The notes under the pieces: generated by a model | Told to the model about the DNA's origin: nothing | The model's database searches: none | Seen by the model: the letters and a program-made list of their open reading frames with translations, nothing else | Part shown: in pieces, positions 49,386 to 50,750 of the stretch | How positions within the stretch are numbered: position 1 is the first letter of the stretch | Layout: each line of letters starts with the position of its first letter | Position numbers and translations under genes: made by a program | NCBI GenBank assembly: GCA_963692775.1 | Contig: OY839116.1 | Location: 1,990,544 to 2,054,543 of the forward strand | Length of the DNA: 64,000 nucleotides | Source: Dehalococcoidia bacterium | GTDB lineage: Bacteria > Chloroflexota > Dehalococcoidia > UBA2979 | Reading direction: 5' to 3'

Positions 49386-50609
49386 TCAGAGCACCCGCCA
49401 CCACGGCGCGGCGAGCACGTCTGGCGCGAGCCACTCAAGCGTGGTTCCGGTGTGCAGCAGCAGGCCCGCCCGCGCCCGCTCGCCGTACTCGGCGCGGAAC
49501 GTGCGCAGATGGGCGGTGTCCCGCAGCCGCGGCCGCCTCGTCGCCTTGACCTCGATCGGCAGCAGCTGGTCTCCCGCCTCGATCACAAGGTCGACCTCCT
49601 CGCCGATCGAGGTGCGCCAGTAGAAGACATCGGCGCGCTCGAGGCGAGCGTCGCGCCAGGCGAGCAGATCGTGCAGCACGAGGTTCTCGAGGTGGGCGCC
49701 GCGCGGCGCCGTCTCCTGGCTGAGGTGCAGCGCCACGCCGGTGTCGCCCCAGTAGAGCTTCGGGGACTTCATCAGCTGCTTCGTGCGGTTGACCGCGTAG
49801 GCGGGAAGCCGCACCAGCAGGTAGGAGGTCTCGAGCAGGTTGAGGTAGCGATGCACGGTCGGCTGCGGGAGCGCGATGTCGCGGCCGAGCTCCGTCTGGT
49901 TCACCAACTGGCCCATGCGCAGACAGGCGGCCCGCATCAACCGCCGGAAGTCCGGCAGGGCCGAGATCGCGGAGAGATCCTGCAGGTCGCGCTCCAGGTA
50001 GGTTCTCACGTAGCCGTCGAACCAGATCGCCCGATCCTGATCCGTATCGAGGTGCACGGCCGGTTGGGGGAACCCGCCGCGCCGGGCCAATGCGCGCCAG
50101 TCCTCGGTCTCGCCGGGTTGCGCGGCCACCAGGTCGCGCCACTCCTCGTCGCGTGCGTCCAGCAGCTCCTCCCAGATGCCGGCCTGGCCGAGACCGCGCT
50201 GCTCCCGCCTGGTCATCGGCCAGAGGGTCAGGTAGCTCGCCCGGCCGGCGAGGGACTCCGACACCTGCTGCATGAGCAGCAGGTTGGCCGAGCCGGTGAT
50301 CAGGAACCGCCCGGGCATGCGCCGCGCGTCGATGGCGAGCTTCACGGCGTGCAGCAGATCGGGCTCACGCTGGACCTCGTCGAGGGTGACGGACTGGTGG
50401 CCGCCGAGCAGCGCCTGCGGGTCACGCCGGGCGGCGTCGATGACATCGAGGTCGTCGAGCGAGAGGAAGCGCCGTCCTCCGGGCGCGAGCTCCTGGGCGA
50501 GGGTGCTCTTGCCCGTCTGGCGGGCGCCGGTGACGACCACAGCGGGCATCACGCGGAGCCGGTCCTCCAGGCTGGATCTGGCCAGGCGAGAAAGGGCGCG
50601 CTCATTCAT
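49386..50609 (-). CDS. ATP-binding protein, AAA_14 ATPase domain + DUF4143
   Basis: Walker A VVTGARQTGKST and the DUF4143 C-terminal region; alternative start at 50621. Confidence 0.7.
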   Translation of the reverse strand: MNERALSRLARSSLEDRLRVMPAVVVTGARQTGKSTLAQELAPGGRRFLSLDDLDVIDAARRDPQALLGGHQSVTLDEVQREPDLLHAVKLAIDARRMPGRFLITGSANLLLMQQVSESLAGRASYLTLWPMTRREQRGLGQAGIWEELLDARDEEWRDLVAAQPGETEDWRALARRGGFPQPAVHLDTDQDRAIWFDGYVRTYLERDLQDLSAISALPDFRRLMRAACLRMGQLVNQTELGRDIALPQPTVHRYLNLLETSYLLVRLPAYAVNRTKQLMKSPKLYWGDTGVALHLSQETAPRGAHLENLVLHDLLAWRDARLERADVFYWRTSIGEEVDLVIEAGDQLLPIEVKATRRPRLRDTAHLRTFRAEYGERARAGLLLHTGTTLEWLAPDVLAAPWWRVL

Positions 50610-50750
50610 GCCATGAATCATATCTATTCAAGGTGTGAATGACAATCATTCAGGTGGTGAATGGAATCTGGCGGCGTAGGGGACGGGATCGACGAAGGAC
50701 GGCATGCGCGCCGTGAATAGAATCTATTCACGCCGTGAATAGATTCTATG
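50604..50750. promoter_or_regulatory. AT-rich operator array: three ATTCA-N5-TGAAT palindromes and two ATAGA-N1-TCTAT palindromes
   Basis: ATTCA-N5-TGAAT sites at 50604-50618, 50626-50640 and 50647-50661. One 19-bp palindrome GTGAATAGAATCTATTCAC at 50713-50731 contains the first ATAGA-N1-TCTAT; a second ATAGATTCTAT lies at 50735-50750. The array overlaps the start of the DUF4143 ATPase gene. Confidence 0.4.

Follow-up and report, generated by a model that had tools for sequence, protein, structure and literature searches.

A lattice of short palindromes, built from the half-sites ATTCA and TGAAT, spans the promoter and start codon of a gene for an AAA_14/DUF4143 ATPase in a Dehalococcoidia bacterium (Chloroflexota, UBA2979), and a core of about 37 base pairs (bp) of this arrangement is conserved upstream of homologous genes. 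The gene and its lattice are located in a stretch of 64,000 nucleotides (nt) of contig OY839116.1 (assembly GCA_963692775.1, positions 1,990,544 to 2,054,543), which was analysed in full and is called the window here. We favour, with moderate confidence, a reading in which the encoded protein, a predicted ATPase-nuclease, represses its own gene by means of an internal winged helix that would recognize operators in the promoter.

Palindromes over a predicted promoter and start codon

The window contains four copies of the palindrome ATTCA-N5-TGAAT, beginning at positions 50604, 50626, 50648, and 50726, compared to an expectation of 0.00 from shuffled versions of the window. In the other register, the same half-sites form three copies of TGAAT-N7-ATTCA (50614, 50636, and 50714; 0.14 expected). 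Half of all TGAAT and ATTCA pentamers in the window (9 of 18) are found within 137 bp, from 50604 to 50740. A first-pass annotation, made from the sequence alone, had singled out this stretch as an AT-rich run of palindromes, and that description holds, with a GC content of ~0.48-0.52 for 50600-50750 compared to ~0.70-0.75 nearby. AT-richness does not explain the density of pentamers, because 20,000 dinucleotide-preserving shuffles of 50600-50750 itself gave a mean of 0.82 and a maximum of 6, versus the 9 observed.

The lattice is composed of a single type of element arranged in two clusters. The proximal cluster (50604-50662) consists of three ATTCA-N5-TGAAT palindromes and reads ATTCACCACCTGAAT-GATTGTC-ATTCACACCTTGAAT-AGATATG-ATTCATGGCATGAAT on the minus strand. 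Its period is exactly 22 bp, rather than the 21-22 bp given originally, and its half-sites face in alternating directions, each starting 10 or 12 bp after the one before, which therefore places them on roughly one face of the helix. The distal cluster (50704-50749) carries one perfect palindrome, one degenerate palindrome, and a perfect inverted repeat with two 16-nt arms. All three ATTCA-N5-TGAAT palindromes reported in the first-pass annotation are present, but a fourth, at 50726-50740, had been missed. Two ATAGA-N-TCTAT palindromes had been listed as well, and both are real, with the 19-bp palindrome GTGAATAGAATCTATTCAC at 50713-50731 and ATAGATTCTAT at 50739-50749. However, they do not constitute a second type of site, as they are made up of N7 spacers (AGAATCT and AGATTCT) and the flanking TGAAT/ATTCA half-sites of the same lattice.

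The open reading frame (ORF) listed for the ATPase gene spans 49386-50621, and its ATG at 50621 falls within the -10 hexamer of a predicted promoter. The ATG at 50609-50607 is most likely the true start codon, because an identical protein in the database (P0001; 100% identity, N-terminus MNERAL) is 407 amino acids (aa) long and homologues align from MNERAL. The first palindrome (50604-50618) does overlap this probable start codon. Farther upstream on the gene's strand, a promoter scan finds TTGTCA-17-TATGAT, with 10 of 12 matches (0.1 expected) and a spacing within the 16-18 nt of sigma-70-type promoters. The candidate operators, numbered O1 to O5 (Table 1), interlock with these hexamers. The -35 hexamer lies nearly wholly in the first N7 spacer, its last base being the A of O1, which in turn occupies most of the spacer between -35 and -10; the -10 hexamer begins in the second N7 spacer and extends into the AT of O2. 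The distance from the -10 hexamer to the ATG is just 7 nt, both in the window and in ~70 of 76 unique homologue promoters. This gap leaves no room for a leader, which suggests that the mRNA is leaderless, with a transcription start site (TSS) at the ATG. The array as a whole lies between two minus-strand genes, the ATPase gene and a VOC/glyoxalase gene upstream of it (50751-51173; Pfam Glyoxalase).

Conservation of the cassette across phyla

Relatives were collected with one genome per species, which yielded 193 relatives, and the best 80 of these 193 (68-87% aa identity) provided the loci for comparison. According to their record titles, the 80 represent at least 12 phylum-level groups, including Dehalococcoidia and other Chloroflexota, Acidobacteriota, Gemmatimonadota, Acidimicrobiia, Nitrospirales, Planctomycetota, Alpha-, Beta-, Gamma-, and 'Delta'-proteobacteria, Latescibacterota, Eisenbacteria, Binatia, Methylomirabilia, and Krumholzibacteriia. 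Alignment of the 76 unique promoters on the -10 region, with an anchoring pattern that inflates the TGAAT and TAT.AT columns only, reveals a conserved cassette of ~37 bp with the consensus TTG(-35)..ATTCAYGnCRTGAAT-GAtTATCAT(-10)-tcaYGnC-ATG(aat). The promoter spacing in this consensus is TTG..(17-18)..TATCAT. Conservation sets in abruptly ~37 nt before the start codon, and the sequence farther upstream is random. Positions between the -35 and -10 hexamers are not normally read by RNA polymerase, and here they are near-invariant (A in 75/76, C in 71/76, and TGAAT in 73-76/76). The TGAAT at -20 to -16 is invariant even where both of its partner half-sites have decayed.

The placement of the motif is equally restricted. 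In the 521 kb covered by these loci, 52 of 54 exact copies of ATTCA-N5-TGAAT lie within -200 to +20 of the gene start, and with up to one mismatch the counts are 92 sites inside this interval and 7 outside. No conserved sequence and no repeat of the motif was found 3' of the stop codon in 81 loci, and clustering of the ORFs that flank the gene in the same loci gave no conserved partner gene; the largest family is present at 8 of the 81, all from one Acidimicrobiia group. The end of a transposon or insertion element was considered and rejected, with nothing conserved 3' of the stop codon and no conserved neighbour gene or recombinase in these loci. The cassette is found upstream of homologues that range from 35 to 96% identity. 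In addition, when five members of a clade at 43-53% identity were picked by protein profile only, all five carried the motif at the promoter.

These comparisons bear out part of the proposal of the first-pass annotation, which had viewed the array as a binding site for a regulator, perhaps a dimer that would bind cooperatively, and had called for a comparison of homologue upstream regions. The half-sites clearly exceed background frequency and are conserved upstream of orthologues while the surrounding DNA is not. Symmetric half-sites that overlie a core promoter and persist while the flanks diverge are what would be expected of repressor operators. The identity of 68-87% across phyla, together with the patchy distribution, points to horizontal transfer under strong purifying selection. 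Most copies are probably no recent arrivals, because gene GC content tracks that of the flanks (r = 0.70).

The closest relative (L210) encodes a protein 96% identical to that of the window, shares the VOC-ATPase synteny, and keeps both clusters. The N5 spacers vary between the two loci and hardly any similarity is left in the stretch between the clusters, such that the comparison constitutes a phylogenetic footprint at the sequence level, distal cluster included. The same locus bears on a very unlikely alternative for the distal cluster (50713-50749), namely that it is no operator and forms an RNA hairpin that terminates or stabilizes the upstream VOC/glyoxalase transcript. The repeat begins 2 nt after the VOC stop codon, and its two perfect 16-nt arms can form a 15-bp RNA hairpin of -29 kcal/mol (z = -4.0) that 0 of 200 shuffled sequences match in stability. 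However, the hairpin is AU-rich and has no U-tract, a terminator scan gave 0 matches, and the cluster therefore does not qualify as an intrinsic terminator. In L210 only the 9-bp operator palindrome is complementary and the outer arms are unpaired. The TGAATAGAATCTATTCA unit also recurs within the lattice at two unrelated metagenome loci (L098 and L177). Moreover, a hairpin would account for the distal cluster only and would be compatible with an operator role.

The encoded protein and its candidate recognition helix

The protein combines AAA_14 (80.7 bits, cut-off 27, E = 1.2e-22, residues 26-140) and DUF4143 (125.1 bits, cut-off 28.1, E = 2.8e-36, residues 210-360), both above the Pfam gathering score and in the N-to-C order of the COG1373 architecture. 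A search of NCBIfam with the protein found no family. The PADLOC model for PDC-S01 (PDLC04790) matches residues 1-404 of 407 with E = 3.8e-111. PDC-S01 is reported to rank fourth in abundance among the defence candidates of prokaryotes, with copies in the tens of thousands, and has been described as a fusion of an ATPase with a PD-(D/E)xK domain for which validation is pending (PMC12988326). In a cold-seep study, one PDC-S01 representative was assayed in E. coli B against phages T4, T5, and T7 and is absent from the four systems found to be protective (10.1101/2024.09.26.614923). DUF4143 itself, which Pfam assigns to the PD-(D/E)xK superfamily, has been classified as a family of unknown function (PMC3424549). 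The remark in the first-pass annotation that AAA_14/DUF4143 ATPases have no known function is thus essentially right. In the literature searched, no promoter, operator, DNA-binding helix or specificity, or regulation is described for the PDC-S01 family.

An AlphaFold2 (AF2) model built from an alignment spanning 43-86% identity (pLDDT 84.9, pTM 0.87) predicts three parts; a model from homologues of at least 80% identity alone reached a pLDDT of 34.6 and was discarded. The AAA+ module (~1-190) is followed by a winged helix (218-268; helices 218-230, 238-244, and 249-261 with strands that form the wing) and by a PD-(D/E)xK-like alpha-beta-beta-beta core (305-407; helix 305-321, then strands 327-332, 338-345, and 348-355). 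The Walker A (G28, K34) and Walker B (D77, E78) residues are intact and are conserved down to 21% identity, and E338, D340, E353, and K355 vary little or not at all in an alignment covering 21-100% identity. In the model, the core carries the acidic and lysine residues that characterize the PD-(D/E)xK superfamily, and the protein is therefore a predicted nuclease.

Profile searches give sub-threshold hints of a helix-turn-helix. HTH_IclR scores 20.1 bits (E = 5.5e-4), below its cut-off of 22, and HTH_24 and MarR_2 are also below threshold; a family profile matches the helix-turn-helix regions of MarR, SlyA, and ArsR at E values of 0.001-0.4. In a fold search, the winged helix matches MexR with a probability of 0.96. 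The full-length neighbours found by Foldseek in the PDB are RFC, RuvB, Apaf-1, Orc1/Cdc6, and Can2, with TM scores of 0.2-0.3 that reflect generic AAA+ and winged-helix resemblance. No close solved structure is present in the PDB by a single-protein sequence search, the family profile, or Foldseek.

The fold neighbours raise the possibility that the repeats are the iterons of a replication origin, or of a plasmid-like element, served by the AAA+ protein. Archaeal origins adjacent to cdc6 provide the analogy: Orc1/Cdc6 likewise joins AAA+ to a winged helix, and the window has periodic repeats beside the gene in an AT-rich patch. However, the conserved AT-rich block is only ~37 bp long, coincides with the -35, -10, and ATG, and includes no unwinding element. 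The context is chromosomal and metabolic, with no conserved replication or partition genes nearby, and the arrangement does not correspond to iterons or origin recognition boxes. We give next to no credence to this explanation or to its simpler counterpart, an AT-rich promoter with chance palindromes, as chance is excluded by both sets of shuffles and by the placement of the 52 of 54 sites at gene starts.

The predicted recognition helix (residues 249-261) has the sequence QPTVHRYLNLLET. In motif-bearing homologues the helix is QPTVHRYLNLLE, and the pattern QPT(V/I)xRYLN(L/I)LE is kept in all 31 motif-bearing proteins examined, which were selected by the DNA motif and span 35-100% identity, with QAT in one of them. 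Where the motif is missing from the 5' end, homologues have other helices (L202 at 35% identity, L204 at 36%, L103, L172, L153, and L125b). Of these, L202 and L204 are as distant as some of the motif bearers, yet have another helix and no motif. L125b, at ~23-26% identity, carries an array of its own, ATGATTTCA-N7-TGAAATCAT, in 2.5 copies with a period of 33. A TTGACA (-35) lies inside its first spacer and an ATG inside the last palindrome, which is the same design with a different half-site. Several homologues on viral contigs also have inverted repeats that span the promoter. A helix-to-half-site code in distant homologues was considered and rejected, as it is suggested by L125b and contradicted by two viral homologues (L204 and L205).

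The product of the gene is the most economical candidate for the binder, because no regulator gene travels with the cassette and the cassette is present in at least 12 phyla. In the mechanism that we propose, the operators are built into the gene's own promoter, in the order -35 (TTGTCA), O1, -10 (TATGAT), 7 nt, and an ATG within O2, and the lineage of the window adds O3 upstream of the -35 and the distal pair O4/O5 ~55-80 bp farther up. The protein may bind through the winged helix-turn-helix, with the helix QPTVHRYLNLLE, that lies between its AAA+ and PD-(D/E)xK domains. Several protomers may then occupy half-sites that follow one another at about one helical turn along the same face of the DNA, with binding that may be oligomeric or cooperative. 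Protein on O1 and O2 would block RNA polymerase, and, until it is relieved, such repression would limit a potentially harmful ATPase-nuclease to a low level set by the protein itself.

A homologue from Thermus thermophilus HB27 provides a compact example. TT_RS11170, on the megaplasmid pTT27 (NC_005838.1), encodes a 53%-identical protein with the helix QPTVHRYLNLLE, and its upstream sequence reads TTGTCT..TGAATGACTATCATTCA-agt-ATG. The only TGAAT-N7-ATTCA on this replicon (232.6 kb, 69% GC), even with up to one mismatch, is directly before TT_RS11170, and ATTCA-N5-TGAAT does not occur in the 232.6 kb. A near-core match at 153550 of pTT27 falls in a CRISPR spacer and was set aside as coincidental. 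Two other paralogues on pTT27 have no motif but are 5'-truncated in appearance, and so provide no clean control. TT_RS11170 has IS elements on both sides, and CRISPR and toxin-antitoxin genes are nearby. From its position and annotation (AAA_14, DUF4143, and a helix-turn-helix), TT_RS11170 is probably the gene with the old tag TT_P0211, whose expression was reported to rise 6.6-fold in the presence of both plasmid DNA and TtAgo (PMC4406477). If this mapping is right, it suggests that the promoter is regulated and responsive to incoming DNA.

Table 1. Coordinates of the lattice, the gene, and related sites. Positions are those of the window unless a replicon or locus is named.
Feature	Position	Strand	Sequence	Remarks
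AAA_14 / winged-helix / DUF4143 (PD-(D/E)xK) gene for the predicted ATPase-nuclease	49386..50609	-		407 aa + stop; Pfam, PADLOC, P0001
Coding sequence of predicted recognition helix	49827..49871	-	LPQPTVHRYLNLLET	From translation; helix 249-261 in model; invariant in motif-bearing homologues
Probable true start codon and putative leaderless TSS	50607..50609	-	ATG	7 nt after -10
-10 hexamer	50617..50622	-	TATGAT	Promoter scan; family consensus there TATCAT
-35 hexamer	50640..50645	-	TTGTCA	Promoter scan; conserved block of homologues begins at its TTG
Candidate operator O2	50604..50618		ATTCATGCCATGAAT	Over putative TSS and start codon; position kept in homologues and L210
Candidate operator O1	50626..50640		ATTCAAGGTGTGAAT	Between -35 and -10; best-conserved palindrome of the family, consensus ATTCAYGnCRTGAAT
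Candidate operator O3	50648..50662		ATTCAGGTGGTGAAT	Just upstream of -35; lineage-specific extra; kept in L210, absent from most other loci
Candidate distal site O5	50704..50718			Degenerate in window, with intact TGAAT half 50714-50718 only; fuller in L210
Perfect inverted repeat, 16+16 nt	50717..50749			Distal lattice units; contains both ATAGA-N-TCTAT palindromes
Candidate distal operator O4	50726..50740		ATTCACGCCGTGAAT	Perfect 7-1-7 palindrome; conserved in L210
pTT27 site	211077-211093 (NC_005838.1); L216:1481-1497		TGAAT-N7-ATTCA	Before TT_RS11170
L125b array	L125:5660-5830			Upstream of gene L125:5807-7099; recognition helix SVNTVTNYIEYLE

Orphan modules, genomic surroundings, and known systems

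Metagenome contigs were also searched with the double operator ATTCA-N5-TGAAT-N7-ATTCA-N5-TGAAT alone, using no protein or -10 information, which gave at least 120 loci. Among the 120 matches listed, 61 directly precede an AAA_14/DUF4143 homologue at its 5' end, some of these homologues being no more than 35-47% identical to the protein of the window. In 7 the family N-terminus is visible but broken by a contig end or a frameshift, ~6 adjoin gene remnants, 3 lie just 3' of distant homologues (L103, L153, and L172), and ~10 are simple repeats or AT-rich chance matches. Another ~30 look canonical but are orphan modules, their loci lacking an AAA_14/DUF4143 gene.

The orphan modules include L132:8806-8842, L149:642-678, L104:2267-2303, L112:11576-11612, and L098:3360-3396, in addition to ~25 other metagenome loci. 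Some are perfect palindromes of 37-55 bp, and some stand beside housekeeping genes, ~60 nt 5' of hisF in L112 and beside radA in L098. The double operators at the 3' side of genes (L172:9374-9410, L103:5204-5240, and L153:356-392) accompany genes that are 21-33% identical and whose own 5' regions lack the motif. Judging from ORF translations, the neighbours of the L172 gene include Cas3-, Cas4-, and Cas1-like ORFs, which apparently places it inside a CRISPR-cas locus. At L144:509-1148, an intact in-frame gene of 203 aa behind a canonical double operator encodes only the winged helix and the PD-(D/E)xK domain, the AAA+ module having been deleted. At L173, L197, L105/L186, L117, and L156/L189, the gene is a frameshifted or truncated pseudogene, broken at residues ~28-363. 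In L123, two direct copies of a ~60-bp sequence that contains the module (3081-3117 and 6378-6414) are 3.3 kb apart and bracket AbiEii/AbiEi-like and MFS-transporter ORFs, as identified from translations, with a DUF4143 ATPase fragment 2 kb away. Two copies of the module in L121, 2.9 kb apart, are placed around a small paralogous gene family.

Such modules would suit a regulon, and hence operators that serve a transcription factor of the host whose gene lies elsewhere, such as a repressor of the Fur family. The orphans near hisF and radA stand beside unrelated genes, and the invariance of TGAAT where the partner half-sites are gone is also compatible with a host factor. The classical Fur box consensus is GATAATGATAATCATTATC, and the commonest variant of the family consensus, GTGAATGATTATCATTCAC, shares with it the 13-bp core AATGAT(A/T)ATCATT and ~15 of 19 positions. 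However, it is in the outer TGAAT/ATTCA, the invariant part, that the Fur box differs, and the Fur-like core corresponds to the variable N7 spacer (GATTATC, AGATATC, GAATATC, GATAGTC, AAATTTT, and others), whose conservation is explained by the -10 hexamer. The units of the window (AGATATG, GATTGTC, and AGAATCT) match Fur poorly. On pTT27, where operons for siderophore and hemin uptake (ABC) and ferritin-like genes are present, the iron-uptake operons are without a site and the single site is at the ATPase gene; the window likewise has no other site, and the sequences do not qualify as Fur boxes. Any host factor would need an identical specificity in at least 12 phyla and would have to act almost exclusively at the ATPase gene, where 52 of the 54 exact sites lie. 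We therefore consider a host factor quite unlikely.

A different view, which is unlikely in our estimation, is that the lattice serves mainly as the cognate site of the ATPase-nuclease, for loading, cleavage, or as a mark of 'self', in a homing- or addiction-like manner that promotes the spread or persistence of gene and site, or with targets elsewhere, and that transcriptional control is secondary. In its boldest form, which we regard as doubtful to a similar degree, the TGAAT lattice would be the specific DNA address at which a sequence-reading AAA+/winged-helix/PD-(D/E)xK machine acts, and gene and site together a minimal cassette that has spread across phyla. Such a protein may load onto, cut, or remodel DNA, or it may tell self from invader by whether the site is occupied. 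Several findings fit a cognate site: the identity of 68-87% across phyla and the patchy distribution point to horizontal transfer, the conserved unit is exactly promoter/operator plus ORF, and some orphan modules are long perfect palindromes. Modules are also fused to 3' parts of the gene at many break points, as if deletions begin at the site, the Walker A/B and E..D...E.K residues are intact, and Orc1/Cdc6, which acts on origin DNA, is among the fold neighbours. However, the 81 loci have no 3' repeat of the motif, terminal inverted repeats, target duplications, or conserved recombinase, and there is no sign of multiple copies per genome. The tracking of host GC content (r = 0.70) marks most copies as old residents. 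IMG/VR yields only 9 distant relatives, and homologues on plasmids, though many, are all below 60% identity, as are those in phage collections.

Self-repression by the ATPase-nuclease remains our preferred reading, and several observations weigh against it. The ~30 orphan modules and the three 3' modules are not explained by simple autoregulation. In the closest genome relatives from Dehalococcoidia (L001-L006) and in Thermus, only TGAAT and the -10 region are intact and the partner half-sites have decayed, and palindromic binding is therefore not universal and the choice between the N5 and N7 registers ambiguous. The distal cluster is out of helical phase with the proximal cluster (56 and 78 bp), and the corresponding distance in L210 is 54 bp. 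The association of helix and operator holds, as judged from sequence, at the level of clades, which are phylogenetically non-independent. The viral homologues L204 and L205 share CCTTGCA..TGCAAGG repeats while their helices differ, so there is no simple recognition code. Finally, winged helices behind AAA+ or STAND modules may be purely structural, as in Apaf-1, and Apaf-1 is among the fold neighbours of this protein.

If self-repression is correct, a large subfamily of PDC-S01 gains a testable property, namely ATTCA/TGAAT-specific DNA binding with control of its own expression, and the pTT27 gene, as the sole site-bearing gene of its replicon, provides a tractable model. Regulatory regions conserved in at least 12 phyla, as this one is, are rare, and the leaderless design of the cassette may aid function in any host. 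Should the protein fail to bind, the cassette would point to an unknown regulator of very wide conservation. The DNA-address alternative, if true, would account for the orphan modules, for nested 5' deletions that start from the site, and for the induction by plasmid DNA in Thermus, and would mean that the fourth-ranking defence candidate of prokaryotes acts in a sequence-specific way.

In the window, the ATPase gene stands alone amid metabolic genes, with no defence island. Two tandem and highly similar acyl-CoA dehydrogenase genes, 46682-47944 (-) and 48037-49302 (-), are located just downstream, with a Pfam assignment for the second only, and genes of the PrpF and PEP-mutase/isocitrate-lyase families are located upstream. 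Four ORFs (45278-46660, 53822-55054, 60581-61921, and 61923-63362) resemble CaiB/BaiF-type (family III) CoA-transferases. An ORF with a Fic-type motif (HPFPNGNGRHGR, from translation) at 59424-60038 (-) is preceded and overlapped by an Xre-like helix-turn-helix ORF (MSSRELAERMGVTQQTIAGLE) at 60011-60481 (-), and the pair looks like a Fic toxin with its partner. Two similar ORFs resembling HicB antitoxins by translation, 39556-40041 (+) and 63243-63932 (+), are found at either end of the metabolic block, and both end in ...H.SRL/HITS..ALE/ALGAIGKRL... Separately, the region 55800-56100 has a GC content of 0.85-0.875 with strong negative GC skew and overlaps an N-terminal region, low in complexity and rich in Ala/Pro/Gly, of the ORF at 55690-57564.

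Among known systems, PDC-S01 corresponds to this protein over its full length and has the same fusion of ATPase and PD-(D/E)xK domains, although PDC-S01 is defined by the protein only. Archaeal Orc1/Cdc6 (PDB 2qby) likewise has AAA+ followed by a winged helix and repeated, oriented elements beside its gene. However, its TM score is ~0.23, and the system in the window has an additional PD-(D/E)xK domain, repeats that coincide with a promoter and start codon, and no origin context. The Fur box (7-1-7) is similar in being an AT-rich palindrome centred on a -10 region, with a core identical to that of the commonest family variant, whereas the lattice is conserved in its outer half-sites and occurs almost only at the ATPase gene, with none at the iron-uptake operons of pTT27. 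Many repressors of the ArsR/SmtB and MarR families read inverted repeats that contain TGAA. The half-site contains TGAA and the helix-turn-helix segment resembles these families, at sub-threshold scores that provide a lead only. In contrast to them, the ATPase is no stand-alone small repressor and has no metal- or ligand-sensing motifs.

The strongest resemblance is to AbiEi of type IV toxin-antitoxin and abortive infection systems, a winged-helix protein whose own promoter carries paired inverted repeats that it binds cooperatively. Negative autoregulation on phased promoter repeats is characteristic of AbiEi and of many toxin-antitoxin and defence regulators. Here, too, a winged helix is combined with phased palindromes over the promoter of a defence-associated gene, in an arrangement that would, given the predicted binding, be self-limiting without a separate regulator. 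The two differ in that the putative DNA-binding domain lies inside the presumed effector, with AAA+ and nuclease domains in one chain and no toxin/antitoxin pair, and in that the window has other half-sites, an apparently leaderless promoter, and conservation at the DNA level across phyla. By analogy, negative autoregulation by a winged-helix protein on its own promoter would be the closest known pattern for this cassette.

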